64,000 nt of DNA from the NCBI RefSeq assembly GCF_044324875.1, contig NZ_CP172185.1, one strand, 5' to 3'. The position numbers were made by a program, and so were the translations under genes. Below the pieces are notes generated by a model that was not told the DNA's origin, made no database searches, and saw only the letters and a list, made by a program, of their open reading frames with translations. Positions 6,228 through 15,215 of the stretch are shown in pieces; position 1 is the first letter of the stretch; every line of letters begins with the position of its first letter. The stretch comes from Escherichia coli (GTDB lineage Bacteria; Pseudomonadota; Gammaproteobacteria; Enterobacterales; Enterobacteriaceae).

Positions 6228-7019
6228 ATGACATTACGGATTAACGATCAGGGGCGAGATAAACAGAATCAATTTTTATCGAAAAATGGAGAAAATCTGA
6301 ATTCGTTAAAATCGCGTCATGTGCAGGATAGGCATTTACCTGAATGGCTTAAGGATAAAGTTGCAGCATTCTGGTTTTGTCTGGTGATAAAGGATATGAA
6401 AGTGTCAGGGAGCAGTTACTATGAACTTACCATGCAACTTCCCACTTCTGAAGAATCTGTTTGCATCAGTAAGCTGTCATCCTCAACCCATGAGATTCGG
6501 CTGGAGATCATCAGGCGATGGATTGATAGTGTAGCACAGATAGAAACGGAAGCTTTTACTAAAAATCTCGTTGATGCCATCTATAAAAACTGGAAGGAAA
6601 TCGGGAACAAAAACCAGGCTACATGGCTTAAAAAAAATCCGGAACAACTCGAGTGGGCATGGAAATATATTAACATTCGTATTCCCGAGTCACATTTAAC
6701 CTGGTTTTGCCCCGTCAATAACGAAGAGAAACGCATTGCCATCTTAGCATTGCTTAAAATACTGTATCCCGGAGATATACCATGCCAGTACAACGACAAA
6801 GAGTTTCATGTCGGGATCTGCGCTGAAGAACATTTTTACAGAAGAATGCACGACGCTTTCAGAAAACAGTTTATCGACGGGAAAAAAGATAAACGGGTAC
6901 AAATTAACGTAAAGATATCACCGTCCGCAAAAAGCGCTCTGGACAGACTGACCAGAGCGAGGAAAACAACACAGCAGGCTATTCTGGAACAACTGATTCT
7001 GAACGGTAGACTGGATTAA
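6228..7019 (+). CDS. hypothetical protein with a possible C-terminal ribbon-helix-helix-like DNA-binding tail
   Basis: ORF 6180..7019 trimmed to the ATG at 6228, preceded by AAGGAG; AT-rich; C-terminus VQINVKISPSAKSALDRLTRARKTTQQAILEQLI resembles strand-helix RHH motifs (inference). No family recognised. Confidence 0.45.
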   Translation: MTLRINDQGRDKQNQFLSKNGENLNSLKSRHVQDRHLPEWLKDKVAAFWFCLVIKDMKVSGSSYYELTMQLPTSEESVCISKLSSSTHEIRLEIIRRWIDSVAQIETEAFTKNLVDAIYKNWKEIGNKNQATWLKKNPEQLEWAWKYINIRIPESHLTWFCPVNNEEKRIAILALLKILYPGDIPCQYNDKEFHVGICAEEHFYRRMHDAFRKQFIDGKKDKRVQINVKISPSAKSALDRLTRARKTTQQAILEQLILNGRLD

Positions 7020-8002
7020 CTTTCACTACTTCCACTCCTGGCAGTTTTCCTCTTTTTGTAGTGTCTCCCGGCTGCAGGCATCAGGTACTTTTCCGTCATT
7101 TCGTTGCAGAACTCTTCAATGTAGTTAATCAGCTTCTGGTGTGCTTTCACCTTTTCTTCCCCGGGGGACGCTTTCAGATAAATGTCCTCCTTTTCCACAA
7201 GTGTATTTATAAACTCTCCCGGACATCCCTGGTTATAAAGCAACGTGAAAAACAACACATTCCCCAGTCTCTCCAGTAACTGCGATTTAACCCTGTATTG
7301 TTGTTTGCTGAGGATTGATTGTTTTATAAAGCTTAGTCTTGTTAAAAGTTGTTCAAATCCCGGTTCCAGTTTAAAAACAGATTTTAATACCAGGGACTGA
7401 TACTCCTGATAAAAAAGTTCAAACGTCGGGGATGCAGACTGACGAACAGATTTGGCTACAACCCATGGACTAAATCCCATGATTGGGATTTCCTTCGCTC
7501 CCTCCAGCGCACTCAGAGGTAGTCCAGCAATCCATGCGTCCAGCTTAGCCGAATCAATATCCCCGCTCAAAACCTCATACAAACTGCCCGTGAACGGTTG
7601 AGTCGGTTTTTTTGTTGTTTTACCTTCTGATTGCCTGAATCCATCCACTTTTCTCCGGATATTACGCGGAATCAGCATAAAAGGCGGGACATTAAGTGAT
7701 AAACGTTTACCCGTCATACGATACCAGTGGCCCACCTCAACCTTAATCCGTGTATCTGGCCTTGTATCTGGCCTTGTATCTGGCCTTAGCTCAAGTGCTA
7801 TTATGTTAAGCAGGTACAGATAACGCACCGTATAACAGTCAAAATGTTTCTCCGGATCAAACGGCTCTGATCGTTCTCTGCACACAAGTCCGCTGCGCTT
7901 CAGTATTCGCTGGGTATCTTTCCAGGCCTTACTCTGAAGAATGGTGGTAACTCTGGCTTTATTAGCAATCTCACGCAGCGCATCACTTTGTTGTGCCGTC
8001 AT
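7016..8002 (-). CDS. hypothetical protein containing a tandem (RPDT)x3 repeat
   Basis: ORF 7016..8017 trimmed to the ATG at 8002, preceded by GGAGG; AT-rich; 12-bp unit repeated three times at 7752-7787; convergent with and overlapping the 3' end of 6228..7019 by 4 bp. Confidence 0.45.
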   Translation of the reverse strand: MTAQQSDALREIANKARVTTILQSKAWKDTQRILKRSGLVCRERSEPFDPEKHFDCYTVRYLYLLNIIALELRPDTRPDTRPDTRIKVEVGHWYRMTGKRLSLNVPPFMLIPRNIRRKVDGFRQSEGKTTKKPTQPFTGSLYEVLSGDIDSAKLDAWIAGLPLSALEGAKEIPIMGFSPWVVAKSVRQSASPTFELFYQEYQSLVLKSVFKLEPGFEQLLTRLSFIKQSILSKQQYRVKSQLLERLGNVLFFTLLYNQGCPGEFINTLVEKEDIYLKASPGEEKVKAHQKLINYIEEFCNEMTEKYLMPAAGRHYKKRKTARSGSSES

Positions 8003-8108
8003 CTCTTCCCTCCACACTTTGTCACTCCAGATTTTTTCACGTCCATATTACCTGAATGATAAACCGGATTAGTGTGATCCGGTTCAGCGAAATCAACAGG
8101 ATACCGGT

Positions 8109-8993
8109 ATGTCATTCAGCCATTCTTCCCTCTCTGCACAAGTGAAATCATATCTGACGTTTCTTCCTGAAGAAATTCGCCAGAAAATCCTTGAACATCT
8201 CCACGGTGTTATTCATTACGAGCCCGTGATTGGCATTATGGGTAAATCCGGCACAGGCAAAAGCAGCCTGTGTAATGCCATTTTTCAGTCCCATATCTGC
8301 GCCACGCATCCCCTGAACGGCTGCACCCGCCAGGCTCATCACCTCACCCTGCAGATCGGTGAACGCAGAATGACGCTGGTCGATCTGCCCGGCATTGGTG
8401 AGACACCGCAGCATGATCAGGAATACCGGGCACTTTATCATCAGTTGCTACCGGAACTGGATCTGATTATCTGGATCCTGCGGGCTGATGAACGTGCGTA
8501 TGCTGCCGATATTGCCATGCATCAGTTTTTACTGAATGAAGATGCCGATCCCTCGCGTTTTCTGTTTGTTCTCAGCCATGCCGATCGCGTGTTTCCTGCT
8601 GAAGAATGGAACGACACAGAAAAATGCCCGTCCCGTCAGCAGGAACTCTCACTGGCGACAGTAACAGCCCGGGTGGCCACCCTGTTCCCGTCATCATTTC
8701 CGGTACTCTCCGTTGCAGCGCCTGTCGGCTGGAATCTTCAGGCACTGGTGTCACTGATGATCCACGCACTGCCACCACAGGCAACCAGCGCGGTTTATTC
8801 GCATATCCGGAATGAAAAGCGCACTGCGCAGGATCAGCAACACGCACAGCAGGCTTTTGGTGACGCCATCGGCCAGAGTTTTGACGCTGCCATTGCCCGG
8901 TTCAGCTTTCCGGCCTGGATGCTGCAGCTTCTGCGCAAAGCCCGTGATCGCATTATCCGCCTGCTGATCACACTGTGGGATCGCCTGTTCTGA
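8109..8993 (+). CDS. YeeP/YkfA/YfjP-family GTPase (50S ribosome-binding GTPase domain)
   Basis: P-loop GIMGKSGTGKSSLCNA and DLPG motif; layout as remembered for YkfA/YfjP/YeeP of CP4 islands. Full length here (294 aa). Confidence 0.7.
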   Translation: MSFSHSSLSAQVKSYLTFLPEEIRQKILEHLHGVIHYEPVIGIMGKSGTGKSSLCNAIFQSHICATHPLNGCTRQAHHLTLQIGERRMTLVDLPGIGETPQHDQEYRALYHQLLPELDLIIWILRADERAYAADIAMHQFLLNEDADPSRFLFVLSHADRVFPAEEWNDTEKCPSRQQELSLATVTARVATLFPSSFPVLSVAAPVGWNLQALVSLMIHALPPQATSAVYSHIRNEKRTAQDQQHAQQAFGDAIGQSFDAAIARFSFPAWMLQLLRKARDRIIRLLITLWDRLF

Positions 8994-9102
8994 ATGTCCC
9001 CGCTTTTTGACCGGCCCCGGCGATAACCAGGAAACGCATTTCCGGTTGCGTCACCACAATGCTGAAGGGCTTCGGTAAACCCTCATTCATTTCATCCATC
9101 AG

Positions 9103-9133
9103 GCCGCGTCTTCTCCGTGAGACGCGGCTTTTT
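9103..9133 (+). terminator. putative intrinsic terminator downstream of the GTPase gene
   Basis: GCCGCGTC-loop-GACGCGGC stem followed by TTTTT. Confidence 0.55.
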
Positions 9134-9178
9134 CATTGATTACGTCATTCAGTCTTAACCACTGATAAGGAGCAAAGT

Positions 9179-9997
9179 ATGCGATTAGCCAGTCGTTTTG
9201 GTTATGCGAACCAGATACGCCGTGACCGTCCGCTGACCCGTGAAGAGCTGATGCACCATGTGCCCGGGATTTTCGGGGAAGATAAACACACCTCCCGGAG
9301 CCGGAACTATACATACATCCCCACCATCACCGTGCTGGAAAGCCTGCAGCGGGAAGGCTTTCAGCCATTCTTCGCCTGCCAGACCCGCGTACGTGACCCG
9401 GGTCGCCGGGGGTATACCAAACACATGCTGCGTCTGCGCCGTGACGGGGAGATAAACGGACAACATGTCCCTGAAATTATTCTGCTCAACTCTCATGACG
9501 GTACCTCCAGCTACCAGATGCTGCCGGGTTACTTCAGGTTCGTCTGCCAGAACGGATGCGTCTGCGGTCAGTCTCGGGGGGAAGTGCGTGTTCCGCACCG
9601 GGGAAATGTGGTGGACAGAGTCATTGAAGGGGCTTACGAGGTGGTGGGCGTGTTTGACCGGATAGAGGAGAAGCGTGATGCCATGCAGTCGCTGGTCCTG
9701 CCGCCACCGGCACGCCAGGCGCTGGCACAGGCGGCACTGACTTACCGTTATGGTGACGAACATCAGCCCGTCACCACCGCCGACATTCTGACACCACGAC
9801 GCCGGGAGGATTACGGTAAGGACCTGTGGAGTGCTTATCAGACCATCCAGGAGAATATGCTGAAAGGCGGGATTTCCGGTCGCAGTGCAAAAGGAAAACG
9901 TATCCATACCCGGGCCATTCACAGCATTGATACCGATATAAAACTCAACCGCGCATTGTGGGTGATGGCAGAAACGCTGCTGGAGAGCATGCGCTGA
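9179..9997 (+). CDS. DUF932-family protein (YfjQ/YafZ-like)
   Basis: 272-aa protein in the position and with the general sequence character of YafZ/YfjQ homologues that follow the GTPase in CP4-type islands. Confidence 0.6.
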   Translation: MRLASRFGYANQIRRDRPLTREELMHHVPGIFGEDKHTSRSRNYTYIPTITVLESLQREGFQPFFACQTRVRDPGRRGYTKHMLRLRRDGEINGQHVPEIILLNSHDGTSSYQMLPGYFRFVCQNGCVCGQSRGEVRVPHRGNVVDRVIEGAYEVVGVFDRIEEKRDAMQSLVLPPPARQALAQAALTYRYGDEHQPVTTADILTPRRREDYGKDLWSAYQTIQENMLKGGISGRSAKGKRIHTRAIHSIDTDIKLNRALWVMAETLLESMR

Positions 9998-10088
9998 TGC
10001 TGTTTCCCTGAAAGTGCAGCCCTGACTCACGTCTGTACCAGTCCCCAGGCATTCTTCCATTCATTTACTTTTTATAAGGAATCATCTC

Positions 10089-10574
10089 ATGACAACCTTT
10101 TCGCATAGCTCCACCACACCTTCTGTTTCCGCAACTACTGCATCAGGGAATAACCAGTCTCAACTGGTTGCCACTCCCGTCCCTGATGAACAGCGCATCA
10201 GCTTCTGGCCGCAGCACTTTGGCCTCATTCCACAGTGGGTGACCCTGGAGCCCCGTGTCTTCGGCTGGATGGACCGTCTGTGCGAAGACTACTGCGGTGG
10301 TATCTGGAATCTGTACACCCTGAACAACGGCGGGGCATTTATGGCCCCCGAACCGGATGATGATGATGACGAAACATGGGTACTGTTCAATGCCATGAAC
10401 GGTAACCGCGCTGAAATGAGCCCGGAAGCCGCCGGCATTGCCGCCTGTCTGATGACGTACAGTCATCACGCCTGCCGTACGGAGTGTTATGCCATGACGG
10501 TTCATTATTACCGTCTGCGGGATTACGCCCTGCAGCATCCGGAATGCAGCGCCATTATGCGCATCATTGACTGA
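10089..10574 (+). CDS. antirestriction protein (ArdB/KlcA-like; YfjX/YafX family)
   Basis: 161-aa acidic protein (DDDDDETW...), position between the DUF932 gene and the radC-like gene as in K-12 CP4 islands. Confidence 0.6.
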   Translation: MTTFSHSSTTPSVSATTASGNNQSQLVATPVPDEQRISFWPQHFGLIPQWVTLEPRVFGWMDRLCEDYCGGIWNLYTLNNGGAFMAPEPDDDDDETWVLFNAMNGNRAEMSPEAAGIAACLMTYSHHACRTECYAMTVHYYRLRDYALQHPECSAIMRIID

Positions 10575-10589
10575 AAGGGGGCCGGAACA

Positions 10590-11066
10590 ATGCAACAGAT
10601 TTCCTTTCTGCCCGGAGAAATGACAACCAGAGAGCGCAGCCTCATTCAGCGGGCCCTGAAAGCCCTGGACCGCCATCTTCATGAACCCGGCGTGGCCTTC
10701 ACCTCCACGCATGCGGCACGGGAATGGCTGATTCTGAACATGGCGGGACTGGAGCGTGAAGAATTCCGGGTGCTGTATCTGAACAACCAGAATCAGCTGA
10801 TTGCCGGTGAAACCCTCTTCACCGGCACCATCAACCGCACGGAAGTCCATCCCCGGGAAGTGATTAAACGCGCCCTGTACCACAATGCCGCTGCCGTGGT
10901 GCTGGCGCACAATCACCCGTCCGGTGAAGTCACACCCAGCAAGGCAGACCGCCTTATCACGGAACGTCTGGTACAGGCGCTGGCCCTGGTGGATATCCGG
11001 GTGCCGGACCATCTGATAGTCGGTGGCAGCCAGGTTTTCTCCTTTGCCGAACATGGTCTGCTTTAA
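10590..11066 (+). CDS. RadC-like JAB-domain protein (YeeS/YkfG/YfjY family)
   Basis: JAMM motif region HNHPSGEVTPSKADRLITERL typical of RadC-like proteins. Confidence 0.75.
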   Translation: MQQISFLPGEMTTRERSLIQRALKALDRHLHEPGVAFTSTHAAREWLILNMAGLEREEFRVLYLNNQNQLIAGETLFTGTINRTEVHPREVIKRALYHNAAAVVLAHNHPSGEVTPSKADRLITERLVQALALVDIRVPDHLIVGGSQVFSFAEHGLL

Positions 11067-11128
11067 CCCGTCACAACCACATCACACCTGTTTTCACTTT
11101 TATCTTCTGTCTTCAGAGGTATCCCATT

Positions 11129-11350
11129 ATGAAAATCATCACCCGTGGTGAAGCCATGCGTATTCACCAACAGCATCCTGCATCCCGTCTTTTTCCGTTC
11201 TGTACCGGCAAATACCGCTGGCACGGTGGCACTGAAGCGTATACCGGTCGTGAAGTGCAGGATATTCCCGGTGTGCTGGCCGTGTTTGCAGAACGCCGTA
11301 AGGACAGTTTTGGTCCGTATGTCCGGCTGATGAGCGTCACCCTGAACTGA
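11129..11350 (+). CDS. DUF987-family protein (YeeT/YkfH-like)
   Basis: 73-aa protein in the conserved position between the radC-like gene and the CbeA/CbtA module. Confidence 0.6.
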   Translation: MKIITRGEAMRIHQQHPASRLFPFCTGKYRWHGGTEAYTGREVQDIPGVLAVFAERRKDSFGPYVRLMSVTLN

Positions 11351-11364
11351 GTCAGGGCATTCTG

Positions 11365-12009
11365 ATGAGCAGAATTATCACCATCACAGTGTATACGCTG
11401 GATGAACTTTCCTGCCCGGCACGGGAAAAAGCCCGCGACGGGTACCGTCAGCATCATGCTGACAGCAGCTGGTATGAAAACGTGTATGAGGACTTCAGGG
11501 CGGTCTGTGACATTGTCGGGATTGCCCTCCGCCAGCGAGTTATCCGGCTCAGCAGCGGCAGGTTTATGGAAGAGCCGTGCATCTGGTTCAGCGGCTTCAG
11601 CAGCCAGGGGGACGGAGCCTGTTTTGACGGGCGCTGGCACTGGCAGCCGGCAACAGCCAGGAAAATCCGGGAATATGCCCCGCAGGACCGTGAGCTTCAT
11701 CGTATCGCGGATGCCCTGCAGGCGGTGCAGAAGCGTAACTTCCGGCAGCTTCAGGCTGAAATCCGCCACCGGGGACGCTACTGCCATCCGTACAGCATGG
11801 ATATCACCGTCACCCGGGACAGTCCGACTGGTCAGGCTATGACAGCCGATGCGGAAGCCGCTGTCAGCGAAGCCCTGCGCGACCTGGCCTTCTGGCTGTA
11901 CCGTCAACTGGAAAACGAGTACGACCAGATGACCTCAGACGCCGCTGTGGATGAGGCCATTCTCATCAATGCATACATCTTCACCGAAACCGGTCAGCGC
12001 ACCGGCTGA
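11365..12009 (+). CDS. hypothetical protein (214 aa) between DUF987 and cbeA
   Basis: Plus-strand ORF with mixed, protein-like composition. The competing minus-strand ORF 11164..11907 is Pro/Ala/Arg/Gly-rich, as expected of an antisense artefact in GC-rich DNA. No family recognised. Confidence 0.45.
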   Translation: MSRIITITVYTLDELSCPAREKARDGYRQHHADSSWYENVYEDFRAVCDIVGIALRQRVIRLSSGRFMEEPCIWFSGFSSQGDGACFDGRWHWQPATARKIREYAPQDRELHRIADALQAVQKRNFRQLQAEIRHRGRYCHPYSMDITVTRDSPTGQAMTADAEAAVSEALRDLAFWLYRQLENEYDQMTSDAAVDEAILINAYIFTETGQRTG

Positions 12010-12058
12010 CCTGTCATCGTTAAACCATTCTTAACCACTTTTCAGAGAGGATTTTATC

Positions 12059-12427
12059 GTGTCAGACACACTCTCCGGGATAACTCATCCCGACGACAAT
12101 CACGACCGCCCCTGGTGGGGGCTTCCCTGCACAGTGAGGCCCTGTTTTGGCGCCCGTCTGGTGCAGGAGGGTAACCGCCTGCATTACCTTGCCGACCGCG
12201 CCGGCATCAGAGGCCGGTTCAGCGATGCGGATGCATACCATCTGGACCAGGCCTTTCCGCTGCTGATGAAACAACTGGAACTCATGCTCACCAGCGGTGA
12301 ACTGAATCCCCGCCATCAGCATACCGTCACGCTGTATGCAAAAGGGCTGACCTGCGAAGCCGACACCCTCGGCAGTTGTGGTTACGTTTATCTGGCTGTT
12401 TATCCGACGCCCGAAACGAAAAAGTAA
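12059..12427 (+). CDS. cbeA: type IV toxin-antitoxin system antitoxin CbeA (YeeU/YfjZ/YagB family)
   Basis: MSDTLSGITHPDDNHDRPWWGLPCTVRPCFGARLVQEGNRLHYLADRAGIRG... near-identical to remembered K-12 YeeU. Confidence 0.85.
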   Translation: MSDTLSGITHPDDNHDRPWWGLPCTVRPCFGARLVQEGNRLHYLADRAGIRGRFSDADAYHLDQAFPLLMKQLELMLTSGELNPRHQHTVTLYAKGLTCEADTLGSCGYVYLAVYPTPETKK

Positions 12428-12517
12428 ACCACCGGAATAACCTTCTGCTCCGGCCAGGTGTTTTCACCACGCCACTCTCCCCATAATTTAATCTCTCATA
12501 TCAGGAAAATCTTCAGT

Positions 12518-12928
12518 ATGAAATTATTACCCGACACACATGTACGGGAGGCATCGTGCTGCCCGTCTCCCGTCACCATCTGGCAGACACTGCTCATCCG
12601 TCTGCTGGACCAGCACTATGGCCTCACACTGAATGACACACCGTTCGCTGATGAACGTGTGATTGAGCAGCATATTGAGGCCGGCATTTCACTGTGCGAT
12701 GCGGTGAACTTTCTCGTTGAAAAATACGCACTGGTACGTACCGACCAGCCGGGATTCAGCGCAGGAGCCCCGTCGCAGTTAATCAACAGCATCGATATTC
12801 TCCGGGCCCGCCGGGCAACAGGCCTGATGACACGTAATAACTACAGAATGGTAAATAACATTACCCTGGGTAGCATCCGGGGGCGAAACGATGAAACTTT
12901 CCCTGACGCTGGAAGCCGACAGCGTTAA
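12518..12928 (+). CDS. cbtA: type IV toxin-antitoxin system toxin CbtA (YeeV/YkfI/YpjF family)
   Basis: Internal Met of ORF 12458..12928; ...[62 protein letters not shown]... matches remembered YeeV. C-terminus differs from K-12 and overlaps the next gene. Confidence 0.8.
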
Positions 12929-13316
12929 CGTACAGGCGCTGAACATGGGGCGAATTGTCGTTGACATTGATGGTGTTGAGCTCACTGAACTGATTAACAA
13001 GGTCGCTGAAAACGGTTATTCACTCCGCGTGGTGGATGAACGTGACGCTACCGAAACACCGGCGACTTCTGCCAGCTCTCATCAGTTGCCGGAAGACAAT
13101 ACAGTGATACAGAGCGTGATGCCATTAACCACTGAAACAGCGCTGGATATCCTCATTGCGTGGCTGCAGGACAATATCGACTGCGGGTCCGGAATTATTT
13201 TCGACAACGATGAGGATAAAACGGATTCGGCAGCACTGCTGCCCTGTATCGAACAGGCCAGAGCAGATATCCGCACCCTGCGCCAGCTGCAGCAGCTTCT
13301 GCACCAGAACCGGTGA
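12891..13316 (+). CDS. YeeW-like protein (DUF5983)
   Basis: 141-aa ORF immediately after and overlapping cbtA, the position of yeeW in CP4-44. Confidence 0.55.
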
Positions 13317-13343
13317 GTCTCACTCACCACGATTCATTAACCT

Positions 13344-13377
13344 GACGCCAGTCCGAATACGACTGGCGTTTTCATTT
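13344..13377 (+). terminator. putative intrinsic terminator after the yeeW-like gene
   Basis: GACGCCAGTC-loop-GACTGGCGT followed by a T-rich tract. Confidence 0.5.
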
Positions 13378-13399
13378 ATCAGAAAAAAGGGAAACAGTT

Positions 13400-14248
13400 A
13401 TGTCAGACATCACCATCTCCCGTCCGGAAGCGCTTAACGGACATACGGACCTTATCTGCTCCACAGATATCCGGCACGTTGTGACGGTACGGAATGAAGC
13501 ACTGCAACAAACCGAAAGGCTTATCCGGCAACTGGCAGAAATCTCAGCAATGACAGAAAGTATTGGCGGTAAAACTGTCCGGGACTGGGCCGTGAAACAG
13601 GATTTTCGCTGTGGCTGCTGGCTGATGGAAAAACCGGAAACCGCAATGAAAGCCATCACCCGTAACCTTGACCGCGAAATCTGGCGTGACCTGATGCAAC
13701 GCTCCGGGATGCTGAGTCTGATGGATGTACAGACGCGTGATTAATGGTACCGTTCACTGGAGGAGGATAATTTCCCGGAAATCAGCGAAGCGAATATCCT
13801 GAGCACGGCTGAACAACTGCACCGTAACAGGTATGAAATGGCTGAACGCGGCGTCATCAACCTCTTCAGGGGACTGAGCCGGACGCACAACAGCAGGTCA
13901 CCCTGTAAATTCGGCAGTAAGATTATCCTCAACAATCTGGTGAAATGGGACTGGTGGGGATTTGGTCTGAACCATGGTCCGCAGGCCGGGCAGCTTGCCG
14001 ACCTGGAAAGGATACTGTATCAGTTCAGCGGCAAACCCATACCCGATTACAGGGACAATATTATCATTCGTCTGGATGAGCACATCCGGTCCGTTCAGGG
14101 TAAAGCGTGCTATGAGGATGAGATGTTCAGCATCAGATACTTCAGGAAGGGCTCCGCGCATATCACGTTTAAACACCCGGAACTGGTGGAGAAGCTGAAT
14201 GCTGTTCTGGCGAAACATTATTCGGTAAAGTTCCATTCTTCTGTATAA
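13400..14248 (+). pseudogene. DUF4942-family gene interrupted by an in-frame TAA (13742-13744)
   Basis: ORFs 13400..13744 and 13838..14248 are in the same frame and joined by an open in-frame stretch (…WYRSLEEDNFPEISEANILSTAEQLHRNRYE…) apart from the single stop; the DUF4942 assignment is from memory of genes that follow cbtA/yeeW. Confidence 0.5.
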
Positions 14249-14555
14249 ACTTACACATCATGGGTATTGTGTCTCGCCCTGAACAAGGCCGACAGGTATA
14301 CTGCATTCGCTGAGTCATTACAGATAATGCCTCAACTGAGTTCAATCTACCTCCATGTACAACAACAATACGATGGGGGCTACATTGGGGGCTATATTTT
14401 CAAGAAAAACGTATATAGTTCAATTAAATCAATAAACTGAAAAAATTTCACCATTCCCCTCTGGGGAGAGGATTAGGGTGAGGGGCGCAAACCCGCTCCG
14501 GGGCCATTAATTACCCTGAATTTGATTATTTACACCACGGTAACAGGAACAACAT

Positions 14556-15215
14556 ATGCAGTTTGACTGGAGTGCCATCTGGCCTGCCATTCCGCTTCTG
14601 ATTGAAGGTGCCAAAATGACCCTGTGGATTTCGGTCCTCGGTTTGGCTGGCGGTCTGGTGATCGGATTGCTGGCAGGTTTTGCACGCACCTTCGGTGGTT
14701 GGATAGCCAACCACGTCGCGCTGGTCTTTATTGAAGTGATCCGCGGCACACCTATCGTCGTCCAGGTGATGTTTATTTATTTCGCCCTGCCGATGGCGTT
14801 TAACGACTTACGCATCGACCCGTTTACTGCGGCGGTGGTCACCATCATGATCAACTCCGGCGCGTACATTGCGGAAATCACGCGTGGTGCGGTGCTGTCT
14901 ATTCACAAAGGTTTTCGTGAAGCAGGACTGGCGCTCGGTCTTTCACGTTGGGAAACCATTCGCTACGTCATTTTACCGCTGGCACTGCGTCGTATGCTGC
15001 CGCCGCTGGGTAACCAGTGGATCATCAGTATAAAAGATACCTCGCTGTTTATTGTTATCGGCGTGGCGGAACTGACCCGTCAGGGGCAAGAAATTATTGC
15101 CGGTAACTTCCGCGCCCTTGAGATCTGGAGCGCCGTGGCGGTGTTCTATCTGATTATTACCCTGGTGCTGAGCTTTATTCTGCGTCGTCTGGAAAGAAGG
15201 ATGAAAATCCTGTGA
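14556..15215 (+). CDS. glnP: glutamine ABC transporter permease GlnP
   Basis: 219 aa; matches remembered K-12 GlnP. Confidence 0.95.

Follow-up and report, generated by a model that had tools for sequence, protein, structure and literature searches.

The window analysed here is a stretch of 64,000 nt from Escherichia coli (contig NZ_CP172185.1 of RefSeq assembly GCF_044324875.1), and its ORF listing contains an ATG-initiated plus-strand ORF for a protein of 214 aa. As stated in the initial annotation, this ORF lies between a DUF987 gene and the antitoxin gene cbeA, with 14 nt separating the DUF987 stop codon from the ORF and 49 nt separating the ORF end from cbeA (Table 1). RefSeq gene names at a twin locus of E. 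coli GF43 (99.9–100% identical; 99.9% over 1.5 kb) were transferred to the neighbouring genes; the RadC name was also backed by NCBIfam and related loci were named from precomputed Pfam matches. At the DNA level, the 214-aa gene and the GF43 gene encoding WP_072648643.1 are 100% identical. No second copy of this gene was found within the 64,000-nt window.

Table 1. Coordinates of the 214-aa gene and of surrounding features in the window.
Feature	Position	Strand	Basis
GTPase gene, upstream on the same strand as the block	8109..8993	+	GF43 annotation
Terminator-like hairpin 5′ of the block	9101..9130	+	Hairpin scan
DUF932 gene, first in the putative operon	9179..9997	+	RefSeq annotation of GF43 twin locus
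Antirestriction gene (PF03230, ArdB/KlcA-type)	10089..10574	+	GF43 annotation, Pfam on related loci
RadC/JAB-domain gene	10590..11066	+	GF43 annotation, NCBIfam
DUF987 (YeeT-like) gene, 73 aa, upstream neighbour of the 214-aa gene	11129..11350	+	GF43 annotation
Shine-Dalgarno-like AGGG, 7 nt 5′ of the ATG of the 214-aa gene	11354..11357	+	Read directly from sequence
214-aa gene, RefSeq 'antitoxin of toxin-antitoxin stability system' / 'DUF8835 domain-containing protein' family	11365..12009	+	Homology, model, dN/dS
CbeA/YeeU-family type IV antitoxin gene, 122 aa, downstream neighbour	12059..12427	+	GF43 annotation
CbtA-family toxin gene, frameshifted near the 3′ end	12518..12928	+	GF43 annotation, sequence comparison
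Terminator-like hairpin 3′ of the block	13344..13370	+	Hairpin scan

The genes from DUF932 to DUF5983 share one strand and are bracketed by two terminator-like hairpins, with no hairpins of comparable quality on the plus strand between 9179 and 13316. These genes, including the 214-aa gene, therefore probably form one transcription unit. Across positions 8000–14600, 12 terminator-like sites were detected as compared to 5.7 expected, the two bracketing hairpins being the strongest, and a consensus scan of the same region detected no sigma-70-like promoters as compared to 4.9 ± 1.9 expected from shuffles.

Several features of the flanking genes were apparent. The cbtA gene has a 1-nt deletion near 12874, such that the last ~8 residues are replaced and the protein is 12 residues longer; the RefSeq record for the GF43 twin marks cbtA as a frameshifted pseudogene. 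A 141-aa ORF at 12891–13316 is a chimera of the N-terminal part of DUF5983 (aa 1–94 of a 162-aa reference) and most of DUF957 (13125–13277), implying an internal deletion. The DUF4942 gene (13400–14248) contains an in-frame stop codon at 13742–13744 and is split into two same-frame ORFs (13400..13744 and 13838..14248). Similarity to other island copies ends at ~14485, and a glutamine-permease-like ABC transporter gene was read from the sequence at 14556..15215. The near-identical GF43 island occupies another chromosomal context, beside cadC. On the minus strand, a 333-aa ORF at 7016–8017 has a short peptide repeated in tandem (RPDT RPDT RPDT) and is only a 'hypothetical protein' in the twin RefSeq record.

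The coding status of the 214-aa ORF was examined by homology, selection and structure prediction. A word-indexed search of 5.8 billion proteins detected homologues in at least 3482 clusters of 90% identity at E ≤ 1e-3, and 214 aa was the exact length of most clusters among the matches listed. When 1.84 billion representatives of clusters at 50% identity were searched exhaustively with HMMER, 3345 matched, 1849 of them at E ≤ 1e-10. By the Nei-Gojobori method, dN/dS was 0.37–0.46 for the window allele against two E. coli alleles of 90–93% DNA identity and 0.21 between those two alleles. The annotated frame exhibited the lowest dN/dS of all six frames in every comparison (range 0.21–0.46), indicating that an overlapping antisense ORF of 247 aa (11164..11907) is not the coding one but a shadow ORF. 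AlphaFold2, run with a 79-sequence alignment, produced a compact alpha/beta model of the 214-aa protein with a mean pLDDT of 96.3 and a pTM of 0.88. The ORF is an intact, conserved protein-coding gene. The doubt voiced in the initial annotation, that homologues and coding signals such as a ribosome-binding site might be absent, was dispelled by the thousands of full-length homologues, the dN/dS values, the AGGG motif and the pLDDT of 96.

Conserved positions in the family include E14-L15, A19 and A23, a loop of G77-F78-x-x-Q81-G82-D83-G84-A85-x-F87-x-G89, H141, and W177, Y179, L182, N202, F206 and G210. All of the family motifs are present in the window protein (i.e. D-E-L-S..A..A at the N-terminus, F-S-G-F-x-S-Q-G-D-G-A-x-F-x-G, H141, W177/Y179/L182 and N-x-Y-x-F-x-x-x-G at the C-terminus), which departs from the ≥70% consensus at six positions (R20, G26, D88, W91, W93 and A193). 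The family has a median pI of 4.78 and a net charge of −16; the window copy has a pI of 5.7 and a net charge of −5. The loop and H141 are invariant in the family. The gene probably encodes a soluble alpha/beta protein that stands alone and, across the family, is usually acidic.

The homology searches proposed in the initial annotation, by profile and by structure, detected no characterised relative, and its statement that the function is unknown was correct for what is a large, annotated family. Pfam-A produced no match even at E ≤ 10 for the 214-aa protein or 79 relatives, NCBIfam produced nothing for the gene and PADLOC produced nothing for the gene or its neighbours. Sequence searches of the PDB with the single protein and with a profile produced chance-level matches only, and Foldseek with the 214-aa model detected nothing in the PDB at E ≤ 1e-3. 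Against AFDB50, the best 50 Foldseek matches seem, from their names and/or identities, to belong to the family. Searches of the literature turned up no paper about the gene and no experiment on a member of the family.

In the initial annotation, the gene was considered an extra in an otherwise conserved cassette, on the basis that in the K-12 islands CP4-44, CP4-6 and CP4-57 the DUF987 gene is followed directly by the antitoxin gene. This layout was borne out in MG1655, in which no gene intervenes in the pairs yeeT-cbeA, ykfH-yafW and ypjJ-yfjZ, with spacers of 73, 18 and 37 nt, respectively. In CP4-44 (NC_000913.3), the 73-nt spacer between yeeT and cbeA, equivalent to window positions 11351–12058, contains GGGAATTCTGATGAGCAGAATTATCGCCA, of which 27 of 29 positions are identical to window positions 11355–11383. 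Thus CP4-44 retains the Shine-Dalgarno region together with the start codon and the opening ~19 nt of the 214-aa gene, and the match restarts at window position 12024, 15 nt past the ORF stop codon, the equivalent of 11384–12023 (~640 bp) being absent. Judged from this alignment, the CP4-44 spacer is a deletion scar of the 214-aa gene. A residual ORF of 16 codons can be read in the scar. The short spacers of CP4-6 and CP4-57 contain no scar of the gene. In current K-12 annotation of CP4-57 (NC_000913.3), yfjX and yfjY have been renamed lfgA and lfgB, with lfgB described as 'CP4-57 prophage protease'; LfgB, a RadC-like paralogue of the product of the window's radC gene with a tested activity, has been reported to cleave the antitoxin MqsA (PMC10846083).

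A different scar is present in islands of O145:H28 (RM13516) and O157:H7, in which only ORF nucleotides 533–645 (i.e. the last 113 nt) are left, directly after the DUF987 stop codon; this 113-nt remnant is unannotated in RefSeq. The two deletion scars are independent and show that cassettes of this type ancestrally contained the 214-aa gene, which has been lost repeatedly, and hence that the K-12 arrangement is the derived state.

Occurrence was surveyed in 5426 complete E. coli genomes. By megablast, a full-length copy (≥80% of the ORF covered) was present in 1942 genomes; the K-12-type junction was present in 3494, and ~885 E. coli genomes exhibited only a partial match of some kind. Other E. 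coli alleles are 85–93% identical in protein to the 214-aa product, and RefSeq names for the gene comprise 'antitoxin of toxin-antitoxin stability system', 'hypothetical protein' and, recently, 'DUF8835 domain-containing protein'. The survey of CbeA/CbtA loci that had been suggested therefore upheld the absence of the gene from the K-12 islands but not its status as an addition, as the gene is a regular, RefSeq-annotated member in 1942 of the 5426 genomes and the K-12 cassettes are the deleted form. Its presence within the same cassette in Salmonella, in Klebsiella and in a divergent lineage of E. coli likewise marks it as a known conserved member. The 214-aa gene is an ordinary, already annotated member of E. 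coli island cassettes.

The order of genes varied among Enterobacteria. A 63%-identical variant in E. coli has the order DUF987, gene, cbeA and cbtA, as in the window, and both Klebsiella michiganensis and Salmonella enterica have the order DUF987, cbeA, gene and cbtA. In Salmonella, the cbeA stop codon and the ATG of the 214-aa-family gene overlap by 4 nt; a second, divergent cbeA paralogue precedes the family gene at this locus. The gene touches the toxin-antitoxin (TA) pair in every enterobacterial locus examined, in two different orders, and a TA-linked role is therefore a live rival to other readings. In-frame fusions of the gene to cbeA, encoding proteins of 342–343 aa, recur in some E. 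coli, with PF06154 matching only the C-terminal half. The fusions arise by a small spacer deletion, and their junction reads ...RAG-LPEDFIV-SDKL.... In an AlphaFold model of a natural CbeA fusion, generated with both halves in the alignment, the linker (225–252) was disordered (pLDDT < 50) and pTM was 0.69; the absence of confident packing between the two domains in this model is uninformative or at most weak negative evidence.

Outside Enterobacteria the family was widespread. A scan of one genome per species for 100,044 species detected at least 488 relatives, and the best 80 of these loci were nearly all from Alphaproteobacteria, with 57–62% identity over all 214 residues. Using tblastn with the cassette proteins of the window, CbeA, CbtA and DUF987 were detected within 6 kb at one of the 80 best loci (i.e. 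the Salmonella one) and RadC at 15 of the 80. De novo clustering of neighbours revealed an alphaproteobacterial order of ArdC, DUF2958, a ParB-like protein of 712 aa, two small ORFs, this family's gene, a strawberry-notch-like protein of ~1400 aa and a toprim protein. The conserved upstream neighbours (185 aa and 145 aa) in Alphaproteobacteria had no Pfam or NCBIfam name. On annotated conjugative plasmids the family gene is accompanied by radC, antirestriction, DUF932, methyltransferase and strawberry notch genes, and ICE-like regions also have ArdC, ParB and strawberry notch beside it. The 214-aa protein matched phrog_5162 (E 1e-35), and tblastn detected homologues in lytic phages of Caulobacter, Brevundimonas, Acinetobacter, Pseudomonas and Escherichia. 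In several Caulobacter phages the homologue is inside the terminal repeats, distant phage copies are often near genome ends, and in the two phage loci examined the homologue was amid successive small hypothetical genes. For most of the family there is no linkage to CbtA/CbeA, and mobile elements of several unrelated kinds (i.e. islands, conjugative plasmids or ICE-like regions, and lytic phages) have the family gene in their entry or establishment clusters. RadC, ArdC-N, ParB, methylase-helicase pairs and CbtA have been described as parts of a toolkit deployed early after entry by conjugative elements and phages (Iyer et al. 2017, PMC5512222).

Comparison with known systems bears on the RefSeq name. 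The 214-aa product is the same protein as the DUF8835 or 'antitoxin of toxin-antitoxin stability system' entries (WP_072648643.1, WP_000086755.1 and WP_000094916.1), with membership of DUF8835 resting on the RefSeq naming of near-identical loci, as the Pfam-A copy used was without a DUF8835 profile; Salmonella, Klebsiella and alphaproteobacterial members of this RefSeq family are ~60% identical to it. CbeA/YeeU (PF06154) is adjacent in the block and occasionally fused in frame, and the YeeU label is sometimes given to the 214-aa gene, but the two proteins have no sequence similarity and differ in size and in the order of secondary structures. An obligate partnership with CbtA of the CbeA/YeeU type was rejected, as the pairing holds in Enterobacteria but was found at one of the 80 loci outside E. 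coli, and lytic phages also encode a homologue. Likeness to Phd/RelB-type antitoxins is in name only; the phrase 'toxin-antitoxin stability system' is usually borne by antitoxins of this type. Assignment as a type II antitoxin (Phd/YefM or RelB) was also rejected, there being no Pfam or NCBIfam match and the protein being modelled as a 214-aa alpha/beta globule rather than a small DNA-binding antitoxin. The names among the best 50 AFDB50 matches are mostly propagated and include 'Antitoxin of the YeeV-YeeU toxin-antitoxin system', suggesting that RefSeq's 'antitoxin' most likely spread to this gene from its neighbour yeeU. The name 'antitoxin of toxin-antitoxin stability system' is without support from homology, family-wide context or the literature found. 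Antirestriction proteins ArdB/KlcA (PF03230), ArdA and ArdC share neighbourhoods with the family in islands, conjugative plasmids and ICEs and are likewise small, mostly acidic and soluble; however, no homology to ArdA, ArdB/KlcA, ArdC or Ocr was detected for the 214-aa protein, nor any fold similarity to ArdA, ArdB/KlcA or ArdC.

Because of the consistent gene company and the presence of the family in three kinds of mobile element, we infer that the 214-aa gene of the DUF932-to-CbtA block may encode a protein for mobile-element entry or establishment, counter-defence or host takeover and not a CbtA antitoxin, a reading whose chances we consider evenly balanced. The gene is a regular and ancestral member of the enterobacterial island block, which comprises DUF932, antirestriction, RadC, DUF987, the 214-aa gene, CbeA and CbtA in this order, on the same strand with short gaps. 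Under this proposal, integrative islands, conjugative plasmids, ICEs and lytic phages would produce the protein alongside antirestriction and DNA-processing gene products when element DNA enters or establishes in the cell. The product would most likely bind or modify a broadly conserved component of the host or of its defences, acting as a counter-defence or host-takeover factor autonomous from CbtA/CbeA, and would not serve as the antitoxin of CbtA. The CbtA/CbeA module of K-12, the experimentally studied one, is without the 214-aa gene, and this was counted in favour of autonomy from the TA pair. The acidity of the family was counted in favour of the entry role. Against the entry role, the adjacency to TA genes in Enterobacteria, the Salmonella overlap and the CbeA fusions are also compatible with a TA-linked role, and the protein of the window is itself no more than mildly acidic. 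Reasoning from gene neighbours cannot specify a target.

A third component of the enterobacterial CbtA/CbeA module, acting as second antitoxin, regulator or adaptor in line with what its RefSeq and UniProt names suggest, is an unlikely reading of the gene. The consistent position of the gene against the TA genes (before cbeA in E. coli, between cbeA and cbtA in Salmonella and Klebsiella) favours such a component, as do the stop/start overlap with cbeA in Salmonella and the recurring 342–343-aa fusions in E. coli. Set against this, all but one of the 80 best loci outside E. coli are without CbtA/CbeA within 6 kb despite ~60% identity, lytic phages encode a homologue, and the K-12-type cassettes of 3494 genomes have kept cbeA-cbtA without the 214-aa gene; the protein also has no similarity to CbeA (PF06154), Phd or RelB, and the fusion model, with its pTM of 0.69 and disordered linker, weighs weakly in the same direction. 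An enzymatic activity, as a hydrolase or a nucleic-acid- or nucleotide-modifying enzyme, would be centred on the Q81-G-D83-G loop, H141 and E14 and could coexist with an entry role. Such an activity would fit the near-invariant polar residues (E14, Q81, D83, H141 and N202), which persist down to 34% identity, the compact and confidently folded model and the DNA-processing enzymes encoded by neighbours; we regard it as improbable.

For this island alone, the gene might be a passenger in a decaying element, an intact-looking remnant that no longer matters. The 3′ part of the block has decayed (i.e. the cbtA frameshift, the DUF5983-DUF957 fusion by deletion and the in-frame stop codon of DUF4942), the window allele has G26 where 73% of the family has W, its dN/dS of 0.37–0.46 against other E. 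coli alleles exceeds the 0.21 between those alleles, and E. coli has lost the gene by deletion more than once. However, the reading frame is complete, all of the near-invariant motif residues are kept except for a conservative Asp for Glu at position 88, and dN/dS is still <1 and lowest in the annotated frame; a passenger status is thus very improbable.

The 214-aa gene belongs to the standard, annotated content of these islands, and the K-12 cassettes used as the reference are the deleted form. The family is already catalogued, and the remaining interest is in an uncharacterised family with a probably misleading name. More tentatively than the entry role itself, the protein could be a structurally orphan entry or counter-defence effector that has a Proteobacteria-wide target and is hidden from anti-defence surveys by the misnomer 'antitoxin'. 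If so, islands of Enterobacteria and conjugative elements of Alphaproteobacteria would share one effector at ~60% identity, with lytic phages having more distant versions. The family is very large, is spread by mobile elements, has a confidently predicted fold but no solved relative and is found near antirestriction genes, and is a reasonable candidate for an anti-defence screen.
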